Positions 227-27,515 of a stretch of DNA of 34,170 nucleotides are shown in pieces. The notes beneath the pieces are model-generated. The model made no database searches. It was not told where the DNA came from and saw only the letters and a list, made by a program, of their open reading frames with translations. The DNA is taken from assembly GCA_020631155.1 (NCBI GenBank), contig JAHDHV010000016.1:1-34170 (forward strand), read 5' to 3'. The DNA comes from Bacteroidota bacterium. GTDB taxonomy: Bacteria > Bacteroidota > Bacteroidia > Chitinophagales > UBA2359. Every line of letters begins with the position of its first letter. The first letter of the stretch is position 1. Both the position numbers and the translations under genes were made by a program.

Positions 227-300
227 GGCGAGGTAGCTCAGCTGGTTAGAGCGCAGGATTCATAATCCTGAGGTCGCGAGTTCAAGCCTCGCCCTCGCTA
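227..300 (+). tRNA. tRNA-Met (anticodon CAT; could alternatively be tRNA-Ile2 lysidine type)
   Basis: Cloverleaf: acceptor GGCGAGG/CCTCGCT, D-arm GCTCAGCTGGTTAGAGC, anticodon stem CAGGA/TCCTG with loop TTCATAA, T-arm GCGAG-TTCAAGC-CTCGC; no encoded CCA. Confidence 0.8.
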
Positions 301-3636: not shown

Positions 3637-4194
3637 ATGCTTTACAAATTAACACTCAAAAACACCGATAAAAAGCTCATTGTCTCAGACAAGGTCTATG
3701 AAGCTTTAGCACGAAATGAATATTTTCAAAGTATTCAATTACTCAAGAATTTGCGGATTCACTCCTATGGTTATGCCTTCTTCCAGAAAAATTTTGCCAA
3801 GCCCGAAGGCGGCTATAAAAACATAACGATTTATATACATCGTTATGTGGCAGAAAACTTTGTAGAAAAACCGCAAAGCAATAAACGACTCCTCGTTAGT
3901 TTTCGTAACGGCAACCGCCTAGACTGTAGAGAAGAAAACATCATCTGGGTCACCGCCTCGCAATTGGTTCGCAATACCGAAGGCATCATCAGCAACAGCA
4001 CCGGCTATCGCGGCGTTACAAAGGTAAATAATAAATACCGAGCAGCCATTTTTAGGGGCAAAACTCGCTACGATCTTGGTGATTTTACCAGCCCCGAAGA
4101 AGCTGCACGAGCCTATAACCGCAAGTCTATCGAATGGTTTGGCGTGACTAAAAGCTTAAACAAAATTCCGGGCGAGGACATCCAAGTTCGTTGA
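3637..4194 (+). CDS. HNH endonuclease (HNH_3-like) fused to an AP2/ERF-type DNA-binding domain; homing-endonuclease-like
   Basis: HNH_3-like segment IHRYVAENF...FRNGNRLDCREENIIWV; AP2 signature YRGVTKVNNKYRAAIFRGKTRYDLGDFTSPEEAARAYNRKSIEWFG; local GC clearly above window average. Confidence 0.75.
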   Translation: MLYKLTLKNTDKKLIVSDKVYEALARNEYFQSIQLLKNLRIHSYGYAFFQKNFAKPEGGYKNITIYIHRYVAENFVEKPQSNKRLLVSFRNGNRLDCREENIIWVTASQLVRNTEGIISNSTGYRGVTKVNNKYRAAIFRGKTRYDLGDFTSPEEAARAYNRKSIEWFGVTKSLNKIPGEDIQVR

Positions 4195-6856: not shown

Positions 6857-6876
6857 TTTAATTATGAATTTATTTA

Positions 6877-6940
6877 ATTACGAATTACGAATTACGAATT
6901 ACGAATTACGAATTAGAAATTACGAATTAGAAATTACGAA
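6877..6940. repeat. Tandem 9-bp repeat (ATTACGAAT / ATTAGAAAT) x7
   Basis: Direct reading; same unit recurs at 27430-27462. Confidence 0.85.
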
Positions 6941-6995
6941 TTGTTGAATTATTATTTAGTCAACTGACCATTAATAATTCAACAATTCATTTTTT
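6941..6995 (+). terminator. Hairpin TTGTTGAATTATTA-loop17-TAATAATTCAACAA followed by TTCATTTTTT; likely ribBA terminator
   Basis: 14-bp perfect inverted repeat plus T-run. Confidence 0.55.
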
Positions 6996-7034
6996 ATGAG
7001 AAAAAAATATTTTTTATTTTATTTGTTATTAACT

Positions 7035-8165
7035 ATGGAAAAGGCATTTAAAAGTATTCGCATCCAAAATTTTAAGTCTATTAAAGACATAGAACTCAAT
7101 TGCAGCCGCATTAATTTATTTATTGGCAAGCCAAATGTGGGCAAATCCAATATTTTAGAGGCACTGTCTTTATTTGCCGCGCCTTTTAGTCAAGATGAAA
7201 AATATCTATCCGAATTTATTCGCTATCGAAATTTTAGCAATCTTTTTTATGATGATAATATTCGAGAACCCATTTTAATCACTTCTAATCTTGGGAATGG
7301 GCATTTGTTTTATGATAGAGAAAGATGGGCTTTCGGTCTGGTAATGAGTGATAAAAGTGTAAATTCAAATAAGTTGAATGTTTTAAATGTTGATTTAGTA
7401 AGTGACTATCTTGATAGCTTAGTAATTAAAAATACTTTAATCAGTGCTTTTCCTTCAAAAAATAAAGATGCTCATGGTGAGCATATAAGATTTAGTTTTT
7501 TCCAAAGTATTGATAGAGCTGGCTATAGAGGTAGGAGTGATAGAAACTATAAGTTTAAGTTGGAATACACATCAACTCTAAAAAAATACACCTTTAAAGA
7601 AGGAATAAATATCAGTTCACAAGGGGATTACAGCCTTTATCCTCCATTTGGAGATAATTTATTTTTAGTAGTACAAACAAATCCTGAGTTGAGGAGGGAA
7701 ATAGCTGATTTTTTTGAAGAATATAATATGGATTTTATATTAGATATAAAAAATAATGAATTTGAGGTGCAAAAAAAGGTAGATGGCATTGTTTATAAAA
7801 GACCTTACCAACTAATTGCAGATACTTTAAAGCGCATTATTTTTCATTATGCAGCCATTTATTCCAATAAAGATTCGATTTTATTATTTGAAGAACCAGA
7901 AAATCACTCTTTTCCGCCTTATGTGCGAGAGTTAGCCCATAAAATTGTGGATGATGAAAGCAATCAATTTTTTATTACCACACATAGTCCCTATTTATTT
8001 AATACCATTATCGAAAATGCATCAAGAGAAGATGTTTCTGTTTTTATCACTAACTTTGAGCAACATCAAACAAAGGTCAAGCAATTAACAGAGGATGAAA
8101 TTGCCGAACTATCTGATCATGGGGCAGATATTTTTTTCAATTTAAATTGGTTTGAAAATGAGTAA
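7035..8165 (+). CDS. ABC-type (AAA_21/AAA_15-like) ATPase, defense-associated type; module 1 ATPase. The ORF track start 6996 is less likely than MEKAFKSIRIQNFKSI at 7035
   Basis: Walker A IGKPNVGKSNILEAL; Walker B/D-loop ILLFEEPENHSFP; H-loop FITTHSPYLF; N-terminus typical of OLD/AbiL/PARIS-class ATPases. Confidence 0.75.
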   Translation: MEKAFKSIRIQNFKSIKDIELNCSRINLFIGKPNVGKSNILEALSLFAAPFSQDEKYLSEFIRYRNFSNLFYDDNIREPILITSNLGNGHLFYDRERWAFGLVMSDKSVNSNKLNVLNVDLVSDYLDSLVIKNTLISAFPSKNKDAHGEHIRFSFFQSIDRAGYRGRSDRNYKFKLEYTSTLKKYTFKEGINISSQGDYSLYPPFGDNLFLVVQTNPELRREIADFFEEYNMDFILDIKNNEFEVQKKVDGIVYKRPYQLIADTLKRIIFHYAAIYSNKDSILLFEEPENHSFPPYVRELAHKIVDDESNQFFITTHSPYLFNTIIENASREDVSVFITNFEQHQTKVKQLTEDEIAELSDHGADIFFNLNWFENE

Positions 8166-8649
8166 AGAGCGACACCCAAATATTCTTCCTGAATGTTATG
8201 CGGATACTTTGCTAGTGCATTTACTCGGTTTCAAATATCCCAATCATTGCCCTAGTATTGGTGCGGTAGCAAATACGATGAAAAAACAAAGCCTCGCTAT
8301 TGGAGTGATAGATCGAGATAAAAGGCAGCCCAAATATTTTAGTGAGTTTGATTTATTGGAAGAAAAACACGATTTGCAACTCAAAAAGCACCCTAACAAG
8401 CGACATTATTTGATTGTAGTTTCTCCTGCTTTTGAAAAATGGATATTTAAGGCAGCAGATTCTGTTGATGTCAAACCTGAAAAATATGGTTTTAAAACTT
8501 GGAAACGCTTTAAAAATATTTCTAAAAGTAGAACTGTAGATAGAAATCAGGATTTTAAGCAATTCATCAATGCCATCAAGCAAAAAAAATCACCACCTAC
8601 AGAGCAGATGATTGAGTGGATTCAGGATATTTTAGATAAAAACCTTTGA
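8158..8649 (+). CDS. Small (163 aa) partner protein of module 1 ATPase; possible minimal Toprim/RloB-like effector (DxD in LAIGVIDRDKRQ). Start overlaps the ATPase stop (ATGAGTAA); an alternative ATG lies at 8152
   Basis: Translationally coupled overlap with upstream ATPase; basic protein; DxD motif; no confident family assignment. Confidence 0.45.
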   Translation: MSKERHPNILPECYADTLLVHLLGFKYPNHCPSIGAVANTMKKQSLAIGVIDRDKRQPKYFSEFDLLEEKHDLQLKKHPNKRHYLIVVSPAFEKWIFKAADSVDVKPEKYGFKTWKRFKNISKSRTVDRNQDFKQFINAIKQKKSPPTEQMIEWIQDILDKNL

Positions 8650-8799
8650 TGGATTAGCTGTTTGTTTTTAGCGTGAAAAAGCATTTTTTTTACACCAAAA
8701 ACAAGCTTTTTTTCTATTGAAAACTTAGTAAGTACTGCACAATAATTAAACGGGATTCTTTGTTTGATTAAAACAATGAAAGCCAATACTTTAGAACAA

Positions 8800-8813
8800 A
8801 ATTGTGCACAATT
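8800..8813. promoter_or_regulatory. Perfect 14-bp palindrome AATTGTGCACAATT ~80 bp upstream of module 2 ATPase; related half-site CTGCACAATAATT ~60 bp further upstream
   Basis: Self-complementary sequence in the intergenic region between modules. Confidence 0.3.
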
Positions 8814-8892
8814 AATTAGTGCTTGGCACTTATTTCCTATTTTTGTTATTGATTAAGGTAGGGAGCAATTATTTTGTATAAAAAAAAGAAAA

Positions 8893-10185
8893 ATGAAAAG
8901 TTTTCGCATTAAAAATATAAAAGCTTTTAAGGATTCGGGGAAGATTGAAATAAAGCCGATTACTTTATTTTATGGCAAAAATAATACGGGAAAAAGCAGT
9001 TTAATTCGCTTTCCATTGGTATTAAAACAAACGATGCAGCGACCCTATGCCCCATTGATGTTTACAGGCATCCCCGAACGCCCTGATAATGTAGATTATG
9101 GCACTTATAAAGAAGTTGTGTTTAATAATGATGAAAGCAAACATATTGAGTTTGAATTGGAAGTGGATTATAGAAAAAATACCTTAAATTATTTAGTAAA
9201 TATTCAAAGAAAAAATGGACAACTTGAAGTGTTCTCTTATAAGGATAGGTATGAATCGTTGGAAGTAGAAGACGGTCAGTATATCTTCAGTGATTCACAA
9301 CTAACAAAGGAAGCAGTAGAAGTAGATTTTGATGGTTTTTTTCCAAAAGCGAGTCATTTTATTAATAAGCCAAAAACAGAAGATGGAAGGTTACTAGCTC
9401 GTCGTCATTCTTATCTAACTGACTTCTTCAATCAAATTTCTTACCTATCCACTTATCGTCCTAAACCAAAACGGCAATATCGTTTTAGTGATGTGGATTT
9501 CTCTAAATCGGGGGCAGAAGGCATTTATTGGGCAGAAATTTTGGGTTTTTATCATGAACAAAAAAATACCGCTTTTTTTGATGTACTTAATGATTGGTTA
9601 GTAAAAAATACAGGTTTAAGACTGTTGATTAAGGATTTGGGAAGTGTTTTTGAGATTATGGTAGAAAATATAAACACCAAACGAACAGATAATGTGGTAG
9701 ATATAGGCTCAGGATGGCAATTTCTACTACCTATTTTAATACAAACATTTGTTCATATTGAAAAAAAATCAGCTTCACCTTTTATTAAAATCATAGAAGA
9801 ACCAGAAATGCATCTGCATAGTTCGGTGCAAACAGCGGTTGCCGATTTATTTATTTGGGCAACACAAACGAATCCGCAAAATCGCTTTATGATAGAAACC
9901 CATAGTGAAAGTATTCTCTTGCGAACAGTTCGCAGGGTTATGGAATGGCTACAAACAAAAGGGGAAAAAGGCATTAATCCTGATGATGTAATTGTTTATT
10001 TTATTGAAAAAAGTGCCAATGAAGAAGAAGGTTCGAAGGTTACCCCTTTTAAAATTAATGAGAAAGGAATTTTGAAAAGTACTTTAGATGGTAGCATTAT
10101 GGATGAATCATTTTTTGACACTGATTTTGAGGAAGTAGTTGCCATTAACAAATTGCATGTATCACAGGCCGCGAAAAGTCAATAA
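8893..10185 (+). CDS. ABC-type ATPase (AAA_15/AAA_21-like, possibly with DUF3696-like C-terminus); module 2 ATPase, AriA/OLD-ATPase-like
   Basis: Walker A LFYGKNNTGKSSLIRF; signature-like IGSGWQFLLPIL; Walker B IKIIEEPEMHLH; H-loop MIETHSESILL; N-terminus MKSFRIKNIKAFKD. Confidence 0.75.
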   Translation: MKSFRIKNIKAFKDSGKIEIKPITLFYGKNNTGKSSLIRFPLVLKQTMQRPYAPLMFTGIPERPDNVDYGTYKEVVFNNDESKHIEFELEVDYRKNTLNYLVNIQRKNGQLEVFSYKDRYESLEVEDGQYIFSDSQLTKEAVEVDFDGFFPKASHFINKPKTEDGRLLARRHSYLTDFFNQISYLSTYRPKPKRQYRFSDVDFSKSGAEGIYWAEILGFYHEQKNTAFFDVLNDWLVKNTGLRLLIKDLGSVFEIMVENINTKRTDNVVDIGSGWQFLLPILIQTFVHIEKKSASPFIKIIEEPEMHLHSSVQTAVADLFIWATQTNPQNRFMIETHSESILLRTVRRVMEWLQTKGEKGINPDDVIVYFIEKSANEEEGSKVTPFKINEKGILKSTLDGSIMDESFFDTDFEEVVAINKLHVSQAAKSQ

Positions 10186-10188
10186 ACT

Positions 10189-11349
10189 ATGAATATTTGT
10201 ATTTCAGAAAATTTATGGAGGGCGGCTTTAACGGAAGAAGATACTTGCACTGTCATTGAAGAATTGCTACTTACTGTAAGAGCAAAAAAGCATAAGTTGT
10301 ATTTTGACTGGGACGAAGCTGTGCCTATTACAGAGTTGTTACAAAGTGATTTATTTGGTTTTTATAATCGAAGAATACTTAAAAAAAGCTATGAAAGATC
10401 ACGAACAGCTTTTCATTCCCTCGAAAAATATGTCTTAATCGTTCCTAAATCCTATATTGAGCAATGCAAAACGCAAGAGAATGTTAGGGCTTATTTTCAA
10501 GATCAAAAAGCAGTTAAAAGCAGCCCTGAACAAACGATTGAATTTATTGCTATTGAAGCTTGTCAACATTATTTATGCAGCCCTTTGATGATTATGGTGG
10601 AGGATGAAGAAAGTGATAAACTTTTTCTCAGTAGCATTTATCCTATTGTTATTCAATCAGTTAGCAATTTAGAAAATGCCAAATCCTTTGAAGAATTGAT
10701 TAAAGAACAGGAAATAGAGGTACTACATGGTGGAGGTACAGGTGTAACACAACGATTGAAGAATATCAAGTATCCTAGACGTGTTTTTTGCCTAATTGAT
10801 AGCGATAAATTATTTGAAAATGATGAAGGAACGGACGATACTAGAAAAAAACAAAGAGAAATCAACAATATTTGTAATCGAAAAGGCTTTGTTTTACATA
10901 TTCTCCACAACCGAATGATTGAAAATTACTTACCTGATAAAGCAATAAAAGAGTGGAGTAAAAAACAATCTCCTGTTATTCGACAAAACATAGCTAATCA
11001 CCCCTATTTTCAGCTAACAAGTACACAAAAAGCATTTTTTGATTGTAAAAAAGGTTTACTGCTCAAAGATTTTCAATATCCCGAAATTCAACAATCGTAT
11101 CTTGTACAATATCAACAAATACAACAAAATTCAGAACAATTTGATGCACTAAATAAGTTGATTCAAAACCAAGCTACAAAAGAAGATGGTAGCATTTTAA
11201 AAGTGAAAATTATTCAGGGCTTGAATCGGGAAATTTACAAAGCATTTAACGAAATCAAAAAAACTGAAAACCAAATCACCTCTGACAGTTTTGGAACGCA
11301 CCTCCAAGAATTAAAAGACATTTGCATAGCCATTCAAAGGCAGTTATAA
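10189..11349 (+). CDS. Module 2 partner (386 aa): putative Toprim-like (DUF4435/OLD-nuclease-like) effector
   Basis: Candidate Toprim elements MIMVEDEESDKLF (Glu), HGGGTG, FCLIDSDKLF (DxD); starts 4 nt after the ATPase stop; assignment by motif only. Confidence 0.45.
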   Translation: MNICISENLWRAALTEEDTCTVIEELLLTVRAKKHKLYFDWDEAVPITELLQSDLFGFYNRRILKKSYERSRTAFHSLEKYVLIVPKSYIEQCKTQENVRAYFQDQKAVKSSPEQTIEFIAIEACQHYLCSPLMIMVEDEESDKLFLSSIYPIVIQSVSNLENAKSFEELIKEQEIEVLHGGGTGVTQRLKNIKYPRRVFCLIDSDKLFENDEGTDDTRKKQREINNICNRKGFVLHILHNRMIENYLPDKAIKEWSKKQSPVIRQNIANHPYFQLTSTQKAFFDCKKGLLLKDFQYPEIQQSYLVQYQQIQQNSEQFDALNKLIQNQATKEDGSILKVKIIQGLNREIYKAFNEIKKTENQITSDSFGTHLQELKDICIAIQRQL

Positions 11350-11385
11350 CTCTATTAGAGTTTGGAGGTTGGTTTTTAGCCCTTT

Positions 11386-11450
11386 AAGTACTTAGACATA
11401 AGATGTGAGACATAAGACTTGAGATAGTTCATTCATTATTAACAGTTTAT
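11386..11450. repeat. Copy 1 of ~65-bp dispersed element AAGTACTTAGACATAAGATGTGAGACATAAGACTTGAGATAG...ATTATTAACAGTTTAT (second copy at 24060-24124)
   Basis: ~80% identity between the two copies, both immediately 3' of + strand stop codons. Confidence 0.5.
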
Positions 11451-11536
11451 GACAAGTTCAAATGTCATTTAATTTTGTCTAGTTACTTATTTTTTTAAAA
11501 AAGGGCATTAGTTTTAAAGTTTATTTAAAAAATAAA

Positions 11537-11574
11537 AACCTTATAACCTTATAACTTTGCAACCTTCCAAACCC
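11537..11574 (+). promoter_or_regulatory. Copy b of conserved upstream motif AACCTTATAACCTTATAACTTTGCAACCTTCCAAACCC, ends 25 nt before the NUDIX ATG
   Basis: Motif shared with 363-386 and 15677-15709(-). Confidence 0.3.
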
Positions 11575-15676: not shown

Positions 15677-15709
15677 GGAGTTTGGAAGGTTACAAAGTTA
15701 CAAGGTTTT
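15677..15709 (-). promoter_or_regulatory. Copy c of conserved upstream motif (minus strand reads AAAACCTTGTAACTTTGTAACCTTCCAAACTCC), 38 nt upstream of the FG-GAP gene ATG
   Basis: Reverse complement of GGAGTTTGGAAGGTTACAAAGTTACAAGGTTTT. Confidence 0.3.
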
Positions 15710-16027
15710 AAAGTTTTTATTTTTTTTAATGAATTTTAAATCTAATGCTTTTTGTCTTGTTAGTCAAAAATATACAAAATTCAAAGAGGTTATTATTTTT
15801 TTTATCAATAAAATAAAAGGCGAAAAGTCAATTTAGCTCCAAACTCTAAAAAGTTTTAAGGTTAAAAAGTTGGAAAGTTTTATATTATTGGCTTTATATG
15901 ATTGGCGAAGTCCATATAATTTTTTTTAAAAAAAGTTAATTATCAATTACTTAGTCTAATCTCTGATTTCTAACAGCTATACCAAAAACAGTTTAGAATC
16001 GTAATTTTTTATAGCCAAAGCCTATAA

Positions 16028-16183: not shown

Positions 16184-16263
16184 CTAAAAATCTAAAAATC
16201 TAAAAATCTAAAAATCTAAAAATCTAAAAATCTAAAAATCCAAAAGTCCAAAAGTCCAAAAAT
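16184..16263. repeat. Tandem 8-bp repeats (CTAAAAAT x6, CCAAAAGT x2, CCAAAAAT) followed by a leader-like TCGAACTTCTAATTGCTAACCTCT
   Basis: Direct reading; same unit family as the 2111-2414 array. Confidence 0.85.
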
Positions 16264-16789
16264 CGAACTTCTAATTGCTAACCTCTATTCATTATGACGA
16301 TTGCAAACTATAAAAAAGATGGCTAAGTAAACCAATGTAATCAATTTTTGGTGTTTTTGATGTAATACATCCGCCAATTAGTTAAGAAATACACAAAGAA
16401 CTTAGCAGAAATAAGTAAATAGTGACTTTACTATGATAAATGTAGACTAAAATATAAGCGAAATAGTGTTAGCTTTTAGAAAGCTTGTAGAAGCATTTTA
16501 TGAATTGTTTTTACTGGAAAGATGTGAAGTTTTTTATATTTTAAGTTGATGATATTTTTTTTATTTAAAAGTTTGATAATCAAGTTAAAACCCAATTAAA
16601 AAGCTAATATCTGATTGCTGTTTACTGAAAAGCTAAAAGAAATATTGTTTTTTAGAAAAATTATAAGCCAATTCAGCATCTAAATTTGAATTTTACTTAT
16701 TTTTGTGACCATTTTGAGACATTTGTATTCCATTAAACCATTATATAGGCGCAGTCCTCAAGCCCCTACCAATCATTAACACAAGCTTT

Positions 16790-20432: not shown

Positions 20433-20787
20433 GAGTAAATGTTTTTAATTTAGGTAAAGTGAAAAGGTAAGCGAAATAGAATAGACTATTTTTTTGTGGG
20501 AGAATACTAGATGTCACACATCAAGTTAAATTTATTTATACAAATATTGGCATGTTTTCTGAAAATACAGTAACTTACAGCACCTATACAACCATTTTCC
20601 AACAATACTAACTACTGGAAAGTTCCTAGAAAAGACTTTATTTTAAATTTAATACTATAAAGGAACTATTTGTTTGAAAACATCCTTGTTTTTTACGGAA
20701 GGAATTTACTTAATCTTGAATTGAGGTTAACTACTAGTGGCTTGATTATCTCAAATCTTATGTCTAATTTCTTATATCTAAGTACTT

Positions 20788-21525
20788 ATGATAGAACTCT
20801 TAAATGAATCCTTATCCTCTGCAAATATTTTACTGACGTTCTTATTGATTGTCATGCTAATATACTGGTTTTTTGTTATATTAGGTGCAATTGATATGGA
20901 ATTTTTTGATTTCGATTTAGACCTAGAGGCGGATATGGATGTTGACGTAGATGTGGATGTAGATGTAGATGTGGACGCAGATATGGATGTGGACGCAGAT
21001 GCTGATGCAGATACGGCGAGTACTGCTAGTGGAGGCCCCGGAATTTTTGTGTCTATCCTACAATTTTTCAATGTGGGTTCTATCCCATTTATGATGTTCC
21101 TCAGTACATTAGTCCTTTGCATGTGGGTCATTTCTATCCTCACCAATTATTACATTATCCCAAATAAAACTTTTGCACTTGGATTATTGTTTATGATTCC
21201 AAATTTATTTATCAGTCTATTTATCAATAAAATAATCACTACACCACTTGTTTACATATTTAAAAACTTGGATGTTGCTCATAAAGATATGGACTTAATT
21301 GGTCATCTGTGTACATTAACTTTAGCCCTGAAAGGGGGACAACTAGGGCAGGCAGAAATTATTGCAAACAAAGGCGATCATTTGAGCATTACAGTTAGAG
21401 CAGCTAAAAATGCTTCATTTAAAAAAGGAGATAAAGCAGTGATTTTGGATAAAAATGAAGAAAGAGGATACTATGTGATTGGACAAATAGATGAAGATTT
21501 AGAAGCTTTTGAATTTAAGAACTAA
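20788..21525 (+). CDS. NfeD-like membrane protein (short YuaF-type homolog with C-terminal OB-fold), with internal (DV/DA)n repeat
   Basis: N-terminal TM segments; C-terminal GQAEIIANKGDHLSITVRAAKNASFKKGDKAVILDKNEERGYYVIGQ resembles the NfeD OB-fold; sits immediately upstream of the flotillin gene, as in yuaF-floT operons. Confidence 0.6.
   Translation: MIELLNESLSSANILLTFLLIVMLIYWFFVILGAIDMEFFDFDLDLEADMDVDVDVDVDVDVDADMDVDADADADTASTASGGPGIFVSILQFFNVGSIPFMMFLSTLVLCMWVISILTNYYIIPNKTFALGLLFMIPNLFISLFINKIITTPLVYIFKNLDVAHKDMDLIGHLCTLTLALKGGQLGQAEIIANKGDHLSITVRAAKNASFKKGDKAVILDKNEERGYYVIGQIDEDLEAFEFKN
20929..21013 (+). repeat. In-frame hexanucleotide microsatellite (GATGTG/GATGCA)n encoding DMDVDVDVDVDVDVDADMDVDADADAD
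   Basis: Direct reading inside the NfeD-like CDS. Confidence 0.7.
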
Positions 21526-21742: not shown

Positions 21743-24061
21743 ATGATATTATTAAGTATTTTAGGGGCTCTAGGCGTTGCTGGCCTAGTCATTGTTGCCA
21801 TCATTTTAATGGGTATTATTGCCTTTATTGCCTCTTTTTATAGAAAAATTCCACAAGGTTCTGCCCTAGTTCGCACAGGTGCAGGCGGTACAAAAATTGG
21901 TTTTGACAGTGGAATGGTCGTTTTGCCTGTCCTTCACTTAGCCGAAATAATGGATATTGCGGTTAAAAAAGTGGAAATTGAACGTATGGGCAAAGACGGT
22001 TTGATTTGTAAAGACAATTTACGTGCAGACATCAAAGTAGTGTTTTTTGTTCGGGTAAATAAATCGGTGGAAGGTGTAGAGCGAGTAGCGCAAACCATTG
22101 GTTGTGCGCGTGCTTCAAGCATCGATACCTTGGTTACCTTATTTGAAGCGAAGTTTTCAGAAGCTCTAAAAACGGTTGGTAAACGCTTCGATTTTGTAGA
22201 CCTCTATGATTCGCGTGAAGCTTTTAAGCAAGAAATTATCAACGCAATTGGTACAGACCTAAATGGTTATGTATTAGATGATTGCGCTATTGATTATTTA
22301 GAGCAAACGCCTATCGAACATCTTAAAGAAAGCAATATTTTAGATGTAGAAGGTATCAAAAAAATCACTGAATTAACTGCTAGAGAAAAAATTAAAGCAA
22401 ATTTAATTCGTAGAGAGGAAGAAAAAACCATCAAAAAACAGGATGTTGAAGCCAAAGAAGCCATTTTGGAACTAGAGCGTCAATTGGCGGAAAAGGAAGA
22501 AATTCAAAGGCGAGAAATTGCCATTATTAAGGCAAGGGAAAGTGCAGAAACTCTGCGTGTGCAAGAGGAAGAACGCCTGAAAGCCGAGCGAGCAAGAATT
22601 ACAACAGAAGAAGAACTGCAAGTAGCCGAAGAAAATAAATTGCGACAAATTATTGTTGCTCAAAAAAATAAGGAGCGAACAGAAGCCATTGAAACAGAAA
22701 AAGTACATAAGGATAAGCAGTTGGAAGTGACAGAGCGAGAGAAAATTGTGGCTTTGGCGCAAATAGAAAAGGAAAAAGTGGTAGAGGAGGAGCGCAAAAA
22801 CATTCAGGATGTGATTAGAGAGCGCGTGATGGTAGAAAAAGCAGTGGTAGAGGAGGAAGAAAAAATCAAAGATACCAAAGCATTTGCCGAAGCAGAAAGA
22901 AATAAATCGGTTGCGATTACGGTTGCTGAACAGCAAGCAGAAGAAGCATTGGTGAAGCAATTGAAGGAAGCAGAAGCACAAAAATTGTCGGCAGAATGGA
23001 AAGCACAACAGCGATTAATTGATGCCGAAGCAGAAAAAAATGCATCAGCAAAAGAAGCAGAAGCCAAGAAAATTATGGCGGAAGCAATTGCAGCAGAGGA
23101 AGCAGCACTTGGGGTATCGGAAGCGCAAGTAATGGAAGCAAAAGCAATAGCCGTTGAGCGTCAAGGAGTTGTAGAAGCAAATATCATTACCAAAAAAGCA
23201 GAAGCGGAGGCAAAAGCAATTGCATTGAAAGCGGAGGCAGCCAAAAAGCGCGGTTTGGTAGAGGCAAATATAATGCAAGAAAAAGGTTTGGCAGAGGCAA
23301 GGGTTATCGAAGAAAAAGCCTTTGCAGAAGCCAAAGGTTTAGAGGAGCGCGGTGTGGCAGAAGCGAAAGTTTTGGAGCAGGCAGCATTAGCAGAGGCCAA
23401 AGGTATTGAAGAAAAAGGCAGCGCGGAAGCGAAAATTTTGGAGCAGGCAGCATTGGCAGAAGCCAAAGGCATTGCAGAAAAAGGCAGCGCAGAAGCAAAA
23501 ATTTTAGAAGAAGCAGCACTTGCAGAAGCCAAAGGTATTGAGCAGAAGGCAGAGGCGATGAAAAAATTGGATGGTGTAGGTAAAGAGCATGAGGAGTTCA
23601 AACTCAGATTGGAGAAGGAAAAAGCCATCGAATTGGCAGCCATCAAGATTCAGGAAGCCATTGCCGAGTCACAAGCTAAAGCCATTGCCGAAGCACTCAA
23701 ATCTGCAAATATCGACATTGTGGGTGGTGAAACGATGTTCTTTGAGAATATTGTAGAAGCTATTACAAGAGGTAAAACGATTGACAGAACGATTGATAAT
23801 AGCCAAAATTTGACGGCTTTGAAACATGGACTTTTAGGCAATACTGCGAATGGCGGCGGCAATGTGATGGATAAAATCAAAGGCTTTGTCAAGCAGTTCA
23901 ACTTAGATACAGAGGACATTAAAAACTTGTCCCTCACTGCTTTAATGGTGAAAATGATTGCAATGAGCAGCAATAGCAATGACAAAAGTATCTTAGGCGA
24001 ATTGCTTAATGTAGCCAAAGGAGTAGGCATCGCCAATAAAAAAGTAGATAGCTTGTTTTAA
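21743..24061 (+). CDS. Flotillin-family (SPFH/band 7) protein, unusually long (772 aa) with an extended Ala/Glu-rich coiled-coil repeat region
   Basis: N-terminal TM + SPFH domain (IPQGSALVRTGAGGTKIGFDSGMVVLPVLHLAEIMDI...); repeated AEAKGIEEKGSAEAKILEQAALAEAKGI units. Confidence 0.85.
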   Translation: MILLSILGALGVAGLVIVAIILMGIIAFIASFYRKIPQGSALVRTGAGGTKIGFDSGMVVLPVLHLAEIMDIAVKKVEIERMGKDGLICKDNLRADIKVVFFVRVNKSVEGVERVAQTIGCARASSIDTLVTLFEAKFSEALKTVGKRFDFVDLYDSREAFKQEIINAIGTDLNGYVLDDCAIDYLEQTPIEHLKESNILDVEGIKKITELTAREKIKANLIRREEEKTIKKQDVEAKEAILELERQLAEKEEIQRREIAIIKARESAETLRVQEEERLKAERARITTEEELQVAEENKLRQIIVAQKNKERTEAIETEKVHKDKQLEVTEREKIVALAQIEKEKVVEEERKNIQDVIRERVMVEKAVVEEEEKIKDTKAFAEAERNKSVAITVAEQQAEEALVKQLKEAEAQKLSAEWKAQQRLIDAEAEKNASAKEAEAKKIMAEAIAAEEAALGVSEAQVMEAKAIAVERQGVVEANIITKKAEAEAKAIALKAEAAKKRGLVEANIMQEKGLAEARVIEEKAFAEAKGLEERGVAEAKVLEQAALAEAKGIEEKGSAEAKILEQAALAEAKGIAEKGSAEAKILEEAALAEAKGIEQKAEAMKKLDGVGKEHEEFKLRLEKEKAIELAAIKIQEAIAESQAKAIAEALKSANIDIVGGETMFFENIVEAITRGKTIDRTIDNSQNLTALKHGLLGNTANGGGNVMDKIKGFVKQFNLDTEDIKNLSLTALMVKMIAMSSNSNDKSILGELLNVAKGVGIANKKVDSLF

Positions 24062-24124
24062 GTACTTAGACGTAAGATATGAGATATGAGACTTGGGGTA
24101 ACTGATTTATTGTTAATTGTTTAT
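24060..24124. repeat. Copy 2 of the ~65-bp dispersed element AAGTACTTAGACGTAAGATATGAGATATGAGACTTGGGGTAACTGATTTATTGTTAATTGTTTAT; overlaps the flotillin stop codon
   Basis: Alignment with 11386-11450. Confidence 0.5.
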
Positions 24125-24220: not shown

Positions 24221-24268
24221 ACAACTCACAACTCACAACTCACAACTCACAACTCACAACTCACAACC
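24221..24268. repeat. Heptanucleotide tandem repeat (ACAACTC) x ~6.5 immediately upstream of the folC ATG
   Basis: Direct reading. Confidence 0.85.
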
Positions 24269-27108: not shown

Positions 27109-27429
27109 CTAATTATCCCGCCTAGGAAATGCCAACTTCATTAAAATTCCAATAAGCCCACCTGTAATAGCCCCTGCCAAAATGGTATGCGACCAAGTGC
27201 CAGAGGAGGCAGCAACAATAATAAAAAATAACGCACCAATCACCACACTAAGCCCAATAATACCACCACAACCAACAAAGAACCCATGATTCAGGTCTTT
27301 ATGAAACCAGCCGATAAAGGTGCCCATTAAGGTAGCAATGATAACGTTTAACCAATTCCCGTCAAATAGAAATAGTTGGATAAGTCCTAAAATAATGCCT
27401 GCAATGAAACCGCCGATGATGTCTCTCAA
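27109..27429 (-). CDS. GlsB/YeaQ/YmgE-family small membrane protein (transglycosylase-associated)
   Basis: Gly-rich TM helices IIGGFIAGIILGLI...GGIIGLSVVIGALFF...GAITGGLIGIL typical of the family. Confidence 0.7.
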   Translation of the reverse strand: MRDIIGGFIAGIILGLIQLFLFDGNWLNVIIATLMGTFIGWFHKDLNHGFFVGCGGIIGLSVVIGALFFIIVAASSGTWSHTILAGAITGGLIGILMKLAFPRRDN

Positions 27430-27462
27430 TTTAATTACGAATTAGAAATTACGAATTATGAA
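27430..27462. repeat. 9-bp ATTACGAAT / ATTAGAAAT repeats (same family as 6877-6940)
   Basis: Direct reading. Confidence 0.75.
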
Positions 27463-27515
27463 TTGTTTTTTTGGATGGGGGAGATATAAAGGTTTTCAAT
27501 CTAATTGATAAGTTT

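Follow-up and report, generated by a model that had tools for sequence, protein, structure and literature searches.

The window analysed here is a stretch of 34,170 nucleotides (nt) from a Bacteroidota bacterium (positions 1 to 34,170 of contig JAHDHV010000016.1, assembly GCA_020631155.1), and the subject of this work is a pair of adjacent genes within it, module 2, together with the spacer that separates the pair from a preceding module 1. The explanation that we consider probable, and hold with moderate confidence, is that module 2 is an autonomous two-gene anti-phage module composed of an ABC ATPase (gene A) and a Toprim nuclease (gene B), and that a perfect palindrome in the spacer lies in the remnant of one end of an IS1-family insertion sequence (IS). 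Judged from its motifs and profile matches, the pair is best described as what would in effect be an OLD nuclease split into two polypeptides. An original prediction, made from the DNA alone, had taken it for a PARIS/OLD-like pair; the assignment to an ABC ATPase and Toprim module of the OLD, PARIS and Gabija kind is retained, but the pair is not PARIS. The two genes are as follows.

Positions 8893-10185, forward strand: gene A, a predicted 430-amino acid ABC ATPase of the OLD-ABC type with a DUF3696-like C-terminus, assigned from Pfam, PADLOC and PDB profile matches.
Positions 10189-11349, forward strand: gene B, a predicted 386-amino acid effector with three domains, namely an N-terminal alpha/beta adaptor (residues 1-128), an OLD-type Toprim domain (residues ~130-240) and then a helical domain.

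The genes are co-oriented open reading frames (ORFs) in the same frame, A then B, with only the TAA stop and one codon between them. They lie between the small protein of module 1 upstream and a NUDIX hydrolase gene downstream, and the spacer from module 1 to gene A occupies 8650-8892 (243 nt). The two ORFs with their lengths, the motifs quoted for them and the spacer length are all present as earlier described.

The product of gene A carries a Walker A motif (GKNNTGKSS, residues 28-36), the ABC signature-like GSGWQ that had been pointed out previously (residues 272-276), a Walker B motif (IIEEPE, residues 300-305) and an H-loop (ETHSE, residues 335-339). Across 24 relatives of A the Walker A motif, G272-x-G274, the Walker B residues E302, P304 and E305, and T336-H337-S338 are invariant, and because its catalytic motifs are thus both intact and invariant, ATPase A looks catalytically competent. 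The acidic tail that had been proposed for the C-terminus is borne out only in part: there is an acidic patch, DESFFDTDFEE at about residues 403-414, after which come 16 non-acidic residues; F408, inside this patch, is invariant across the relatives, and a faint match to DUF3696 (E 0.015) covers residues 361-394 just upstream of it. Pfam assigns AAA_15 (1.9e-19) and AAA_21 (3.9e-10) to A, so that of the two families suggested for a profile check AAA_15 is borne out on A, while DUF4435 finds no match on B. Among models of defence proteins, full-length matches to A were obtained with PDC-M55A (2.7e-65) and with NsnB, the Menshen ATPase (7.6e-45); the AriA models match partially (1.3e-19, residues 270-341), and the GajA, Old and PtuA models gave partial matches on A only. 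When a profile built from the 24 relatives was compared with the PDB, it reached the OLD ATPase of Thermus scotoductus (1.3e-17) and AriA (2.4e-8), and it also matches the heads of Rad50, RecF and SMC. From these comparisons A appears to be related to AriA without being an AriA ortholog.

For gene B, conservation was read over 148 relatives comprising a 30-sequence clade and 118 more distant members. The motifs earlier quoted for its product are found at residue 137 onward (VEDEESD), 180-185 (HGGGTG) and 202-207 (LIDSDK). In the alignment of the 30-sequence clade E138, D143, F146, R198, D204, D206, E245, N246, Y247 and K287 are invariant; across the 118 more distant members E138, D143, D204, R242 and Y247 still are, and G182, G183, S205, D206, E245 and N246 are at least 90% conserved there, the invariance of K287 holding within the window's own clade. 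The order and spacing of these invariant residues parallel the two-metal site of the Burkholderia OLD nuclease, which consists of E400, E404, D455/D457, E508 and K562 (PMC6755086), and the combination by which an OLD nuclease is recognized, a Toprim fold with a helical domain, a glutamate, a DxD, a second acidic pair and a catalytic lysine, can be read in B. On balance, a Toprim/OLD-like fold of B is supported. The Toprim core of the earlier description, with its invariant E and DxD, accordingly stands, its DUF4435 label does not, and the absence of a Toprim-like fold, on which the description was to have been given up, is not what was found.

Neither Pfam nor NCBIfam holds a family for B, Pfam gives none for the B relatives as a family, and OLD-like_TOPRIM (PF20469) does not match the window's B protein. 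The only model match of B is PADLOC PDC-M55B (3.7e-21), which aligns core residues 107-313 with model positions 72-263 of 315. A word-indexed homolog search with B returned the protein itself and one relative at 30% identity, and because this search was nearly empty an exhaustive profile search was needed, which recovered 731 clusters at E<=1e-3, with end-to-end alignments for 28. The analysis thereby gives a fold and a catalytic site to a family that exceeds 700 clusters and for which Pfam has no model. The putatively PIN/HAD-like N-terminal domain of B is compatible with an inactive-PIN-like adaptor of the kind present in NsnC, which is not proof of one; in AlphaFold3 models of Menshen the DUF3696 tails of NsnB clamp the N-terminal domain of NsnC (PMC12065111).

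The gene neighbourhoods of the relatives were compared in 32 loci from GTDB species genomes, which span Bacillota, Bacteroidota, Proteobacteria, Actinomycetota, Acidobacteriota, Myxococcota and others. In approximately 30 of the 32, the ORF immediately 5' of B on the same strand is an A homolog, and in two of the weakest related loci (L011 and L033) a single ORF matches both A and B. No close orthologous locus was found in the collections, the genome scan giving relatives at 32% identity or less. Two architectures can be distinguished. In 19 loci and a viral contig (the canonical three-gene PDC-M55 loci being listed as L009, L012, L014, L016-L027, L029, L030, L034 and the viral contig L044), B is followed by a third gene for a DUF262/GmrSD_N protein of 540-580 amino acids that matches PDC-M55C (1e-86 to 1e-128) and NsnA (~1e-11 to 1e-12). 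These canonical operons, with an NsnB-like ATPase, an OLD-type Toprim effector and a DUF262 protein, hold Menshen-like components in permuted order. The two-gene architecture is that of the window and of the loci of the closest B relatives (L001, L004, L005, L006 and L008, at 25-30% identity), in which a DUF262 gene is absent despite kilobases of downstream sequence; in the window, which was not scanned with the DUF262 model, the gene after B encodes the NUDIX hydrolase, with no PDC-M55C. Because the third gene is missing both here and in the closest relatives, module 2 would be a two-gene variant, and its genes place it in what appears to be a two-gene, DUF262-less subclade of the PDC-M55 family.

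The context of the pair points toward defence as well. In the window an AbiLi-like ATPase module lies directly upstream, and PDC-M55 itself, a phage defence candidate of PADLOC-DB v2 (Payne et al., bioRxiv 10.1101/2024.01.29.577857), was proposed from 47 instances embedded in restriction-modification (RM), BREX or DISARM systems. One of the two-gene relatives, at 5348-7854 of L004 (a Bacillota metagenome-assembled genome), has directly after it the genes of a SAVED protein and a CD-NTase (CBASS), which clearly places it in a defence island.

If the pair is functional, its mode of action can be sketched by analogy with PARIS, Gabija, Septu and the predictions made for Menshen, from which we infer an A-B complex, a phage trigger, a nuclease substrate and an abortive-infection outcome. 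In such a scheme A would oligomerise and keep B inactive, probably by way of the C-terminal helix of A and the N-terminal domain of B; a phage cue sensed by A would change its ATP state; this change would release or activate B; and B would then cut nucleic acid, possibly DNA (as OLD and GajA do) or tRNA (as AriB does), with the result that the infection is aborted. A functional pair would mean that the ATPase-effector core of PDC-M55 and Menshen-type systems can work without a DUF262 DNA sensor, and would offer a minimal split OLD nuclease in which the gating of a Toprim nuclease by an ABC ATPase could be studied.

The remaining part of the explanation concerns the spacer, where the palindrome had been read as an operator of module 2. 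Three features of the spacer bear on that reading.

Positions 8729-8832, forward strand: element of ~105 nt derived from the end of an IS1-family IS, with arms resembling terminal inverted repeats (TIRs) at 8729-8749 and 8812-8832, and including both the palindrome and the half-site.
Positions 8800-8813, no strand: perfect 14-nt palindrome AATTGTGCACAATT, 80-93 nt 5' of the ATG of gene A.
Positions 8736-8743, forward strand: the "half-site" TGCACAAT, which falls within the IS1-end element's left TIR-like arm.

Both the palindrome and the related half-site are real. Perfect palindromes of 14 nt number three in the window, compared to 4.9 +/- 2.1 in first-order Markov simulations, and one is present in 7.7% of 243-nt spacers simulated with the same composition. 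When the palindrome was sought elsewhere in the window with up to three mismatches, five matches were obtained against 5.9 expected, and no copy stands out. Upstream of gene A in 31 related loci, neither the motif nor a comparable non-trivial palindrome occurs (0 of 31), so that as far as the available homologs allow, the palindrome is not conserved. With no enrichment, with a left arm that is not conserved in related IS ends (below) and with no counterpart in the related upstream regions, the operator reading did not hold up, and the palindrome is probably not a dedicated, system-specific operator.

The origin of the region is indicated by an exact 25-mer scan of metagenome contigs, in which one match was obtained, a marine metagenome contig designated L037. 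Window positions 8726-8834 are ~90% identical over 107-110 nt to L037 77-182, and 8785-8832 are 90% identical, in inverted orientation, to L037 993-1041, which is the other IS end. L037 carries an ORF for an IS1-family transposase (DDE_Tnp_IS1, 1.4e-23) between TIRs of 27 nt that are 96% complementary; the 22-mer at 8811-8832 matches the L037 TIR exactly, with 0 such matches expected by chance, and the homology takes in the last codons of the transposase, AAGTACTAA in L037 being AAGTACTGC in the window. At the position of the palindrome the two L037 copies of the IS end read ATATTTGCACAATT and ACTAGGGCACCATT: the right arm falls within the terminal repeat of the IS, which is conserved, while the left arm differs in both copies, and the position of the half-site reads TAAACAAT. 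On the most economical explanation, the palindrome belongs to the remnant of an IS1-family end and its left arm is a local accident.

The element's internal arms are 21 nt long and 71% complementary. A tblastn search of the window with the L037 transposase gave a best E of 1.2, hence no transposase remnant, and no second copy of the L037-type terminal repeat was found in the window; because the transposase is lacking and the TIR is present once, the element would be a remnant or a derivative of the miniature inverted-repeat transposable element (MITE) type rather than an IS, and could be either a solo IS end or a MITE-like unit. Searches for the IS end in viral contigs and in plasmids were both empty. 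L037 has in addition an inverted repeat of 44 nt (1-44 and 935-978, 98% complementary), one arm of which is outside the IS and the other inside it, an arrangement that may reflect nesting or chimerism of the IS copy.

What led to the IS-end homology was that the break points of Logan contigs coincide with the edges of two repeats. Contigs L002 (8807-11412) and L035 (8807-11171), from two sequencing runs, share a start at the exact centre of the palindrome, and the starts at 8807 and the end at 11412 are where they would be expected if assembly broke at repeats which end near 8836 and start at 11383. The end at 11412 thus predicted, on the assumption of assembly with k = 31, a repeat near 11383, and the window does contain one there; the break points of independent assemblies in this way helped to expose the IS origin of the palindrome region. 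The second repeat is as follows.

Positions 11385-11489, forward strand: second MITE-like repeat, directly 3' of gene B, with termini TAAGTACTTAGAC and GTCTAGTTACTTA.

The 13-mer TAAGTACTTAGAC, allowing up to two mismatches, occurs 8 times in the window against 1.07 expected, a number reached by none of 100 shuffles, and its sites include 11385(+), 11477-11489(-), 24059(+) and 20776-20788(-). Window positions 11383-11450 are 81% identical to 24057-24124 and 88% identical to 20747-20788, and a MITE-like family with these termini is found in three intergenic regions (11385-11489, 20747-20788 and 24057-24124). The tip of the second repeat resembles the IS1-type TIR of L037, and a 22-nt piece of the extra L037 repeat resembles window 11469-11490.

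Two further features of the spacer concern the transcription of module 2.

Positions 8662-8713, forward strand: terminator-like hairpin after the module 1 stop, with arms at 8662-8680 and 8686-8704, then GCTTTTTTTC.
Positions 8838-8845, forward strand: candidate -7 promoter box TATTTTTG (TAnnTTTG), immediately beyond the tip of the IS end and 48 nt 5' of the ATG.

Transcription of module 2 apart from module 1 is plausible: the stretch between the modules contains a terminator-like hairpin and an IS scar, and in its relatives the pair stands alone. The hairpin is a 19-nt inverted repeat, 84% complementary, long and AT-rich, with a T-run; the RNA fold of 8645-8725 has an energy of -22.4 kcal/mol (z = -4.4), none of 200 shuffles being as stable, and the hairpin was not listed by a consensus terminator scan because its stem is AT-rich. 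TAnnTTTG is the Bacteroidota-type -7 promoter consensus, and the box is its only match in the spacer, which is weak evidence because a kilobase of either strand contains about one such motif. A scan with the sigma-70 consensus, which is not suited to Bacteroidota, gave 18 sites compared to 22.6 expected, a background level, and the spacer has no match in Rfam. A hybrid promoter that would draw on the TTG of the IS tip was considered and rejected, since only 12 nt separate it from the TAnnTTTG box.

Several observations weigh against the explanation favoured here. The correspondence between the residues of B and those of OLD was drawn from the order of motifs rather than from superposition; Foldseek found nothing significant for B in the PDB, and sequence profiles of B compared with the PDB reach no solved Toprim protein. 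Pfam OLD-like_TOPRIM is touched by 2 of the 30 close relatives, with a best E of 9e-4, and among the 118 distant relatives single members touch RloB, DUF4435 and DUF4276. The identification of the IS end comes from one related IS, that of L037, which has 1.2x coverage and the odd extra inverted repeat; the transposases of six other loci (L038-L043), which at 71% identity to that of L037 are the nearest IS1 proteins, have unrelated ends, so that no further copies of the spacer element were obtained from them. Inspection by eye found no target-site duplications around 8729/8832 or 11385/11489, and the promoter was not located. PDC systems are, finally, explicitly candidates, with no experiment on this family.

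Three other explanations were weighed against the same evidence. An operator could still exist if a dimeric regulator encoded elsewhere bound AATTGTGCACAATT and controlled the promoter of module 2, the palindrome and half-site together forming its site. The palindrome is perfect, is not of low complexity and lies 80-93 nt 5' of the ATG, TGCACAAT occurs again 69 nt upstream, and regulation can make use of the transposase or InsA-type binding sites of IS ends. This explanation is nevertheless very unlikely: palindromes are not in statistical excess, the left arm is unconserved in both IS-end copies, where the half-site reads TAAACAAT, the 31 related A-B loci lack the motif upstream, no second copy of the palindrome exists elsewhere in the 34-kb window, and neither module has a gene with a match to a DNA-binding domain. 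A neat palindrome in the spacer of a repeat-rich Bacteroidota genome can, it should be borne in mind, be an IS-end leftover rather than an operator. The same repeats permit an explanation in which module 2 is cargo between two MITE-like elements related to IS1 ends, moved by an IS1-family transposase in trans in the manner of a composite transposon. The flanking is tight (60 nt separate the left element from A, and 36 nt separate B from the right one), the tips of both elements share TAAGT(A/G)C..AG, the Logan contigs of two sequencing runs break inside both elements, and the pair sits between the housekeeping genes ribBA and NUDIX. The two elements have, however, only ~11 nt at the tip in common and otherwise belong to different sequence families, neither the outer nor the inner junctions showed a target-site duplication, no transposase is present in the window, and the right element has further copies, at 20.7 kb and 24.1 kb, in intergenic regions that are unrelated. 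Because of these other copies and the repeat-rich genome the flanking is likely to be due to chance, and because target-site duplications are lacking and two different repeat families are involved, the mobile-cassette explanation is speculative; we regard it as improbable.

The third explanation denies the pair a role in immunity: A and B would be a housekeeping or selfish ATPase and nuclease, for example an addiction cassette like those of toxin-antitoxin (TA) systems or a DNA-repair factor related to RecF, Rad50 and OLD. The A profile does match the heads of Rad50, RecF and SMC, AAA_21 is annotated as a putative AbiEii/type IV TA toxin domain, and no phage assay exists for the family. Against this, the best matches are to defence ATPases and nucleases, the distribution across phyla is patchy with defence genes nearby, the wider family was ascertained from copies inside RM, BREX or DISARM systems, and the pair adjoins another Abi-like module, which together make a role outside immunity unlikely, if somewhat less so than the two preceding explanations. 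Preference therefore remains with the anti-phage module whose palindrome lies in an IS1-end remnant. A bolder version of it, which we would put forward only as a long shot, is that the DUF262-less A-B pairs (the window and ~28 clusters at 50% identity) constitute a distinct functional anti-phage system, in which an NsnB-like ATPase would sense infection and unleash a split-OLD Toprim via an inactive-PIN-like adaptor, and that, in addition, the cassette was captured here between two mobilising IS1-derived MITE-like elements.

The surroundings of the pair contain further features, beginning with the genes of module 1.

Positions 6996-8165: ATPase of module 1, 389 amino acids.
Positions 8158-8649: small protein of module 1, 163 amino acids, with a probable start at 8158.

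The best match of the module 1 ATPase is AbiLi (1.5e-22, full length). The 163-amino acid protein has no significant family match, only faint ones to DUF4276/MAD4; its IGVIDRDK lines up with the DxD strand in the B family, with hhalign giving a 30-column DxD-centred match at a probability of only 2.5%, and on this alignment the protein may be a mini-Toprim. Exact-sequence look-ups with this protein and with the NUDIX protein found nothing. Upstream of module 1 the heptamer AATTACG is repeated 9.6 times at 6876-6942, a tract similar to 27429-27471 which could be of slipped-strand or regulatory significance, and an inverted repeat of 24 nt (6931-6954 and 6972-6995, 88% complementary) ends at the annotated ATG of module 1. 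The genome represented by the window is rich in short repeats: tandem arrays occur at 2107-2406 (16 nt, 18.8 copies), 16184-16264 (8 nt, 10.1 copies) and 24221-24267 (a perfect ACAACTC, 6.7 copies), and an intergenic repeat of 69 nt, 87% identical and inverted, is found at 11505-11572, upstream of the NUDIX gene, and at 15680-15748. About 2.8 kb separate module 1 from an upstream ORF for a 185-amino acid HNH_3 endonuclease (3637-4194), and a tRNA gene is located at the start of the window (227-300); either could mark a mobile or integrative region. A neighbouring gene in the window carries a type IX secretion system (T9SS) sorting domain, which supports the window being of Bacteroidota origin.

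Comparison with known systems places each of these components. The spacer element is ~90% identical to the terminal ~107 nt of a DDE_Tnp_IS1 IS with 27-nt TIRs, and differs from an intact IS1-family element in having no transposase, no second full end and no target-site duplication in the window. PARIS membership, with its DUF4435 effector, was considered for the pair and rejected: the window's B has no Pfam or AriB-model match, DUF4435 is touched by 1 of the 118 distant relatives (E 0.012), and the NsnB and PDC-M55A models fit A far better than the AriA models do. The PARIS effector AriB is described in PMC12409363 as cleaving tRNA.

Among the OLD nucleases, the class 1 enzyme of Thermus scotoductus (PDB 6P74) is the best PDB match of the A family, and B has its acidic and lysine residues in the same order as the two-metal site of the class 2 enzyme of Burkholderia pseudomallei (PDB 6NK8); OLD, however, joins ATPase and Toprim in one polypeptide, while module 2 divides them between two ORFs, adds a 128-residue N-terminal domain to B and lacks the PF20469 match. 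The likeness to PDC-M55 extends over the whole of A and the core of B, over the order A then B, abutting or overlapping, and over the invariant catalytic residues; the differences are that the canonical system is a three-gene operon with PDC-M55C, from which the window pair and its closest clade depart, and that the N- and C-terminal regions of the window's B fall outside the PADLOC model. With Menshen the pair shares a full-length match of A to NsnB, the GxG variant of the signature and a DUF3696-type tail, and B appears to have a layout like that of NsnC, in which a non-catalytic alpha/beta domain precedes the nuclease domain. Toprim-fold effectors are known among NsnC proteins (PMC12065111), and canonical PDC-M55 also has an NsnA-like DUF262 partner. 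The window pair is not flanked by NsnA/DUF262, which adjoins the pair in distant relatives only, and the canonical PDC-M55 relatives are ordered B-C-A in Nsn terms, not A-B-C. Taken across these comparisons, module 2 appears to be related to the NsnB-NsnC pair of Menshen and only distantly to PARIS.

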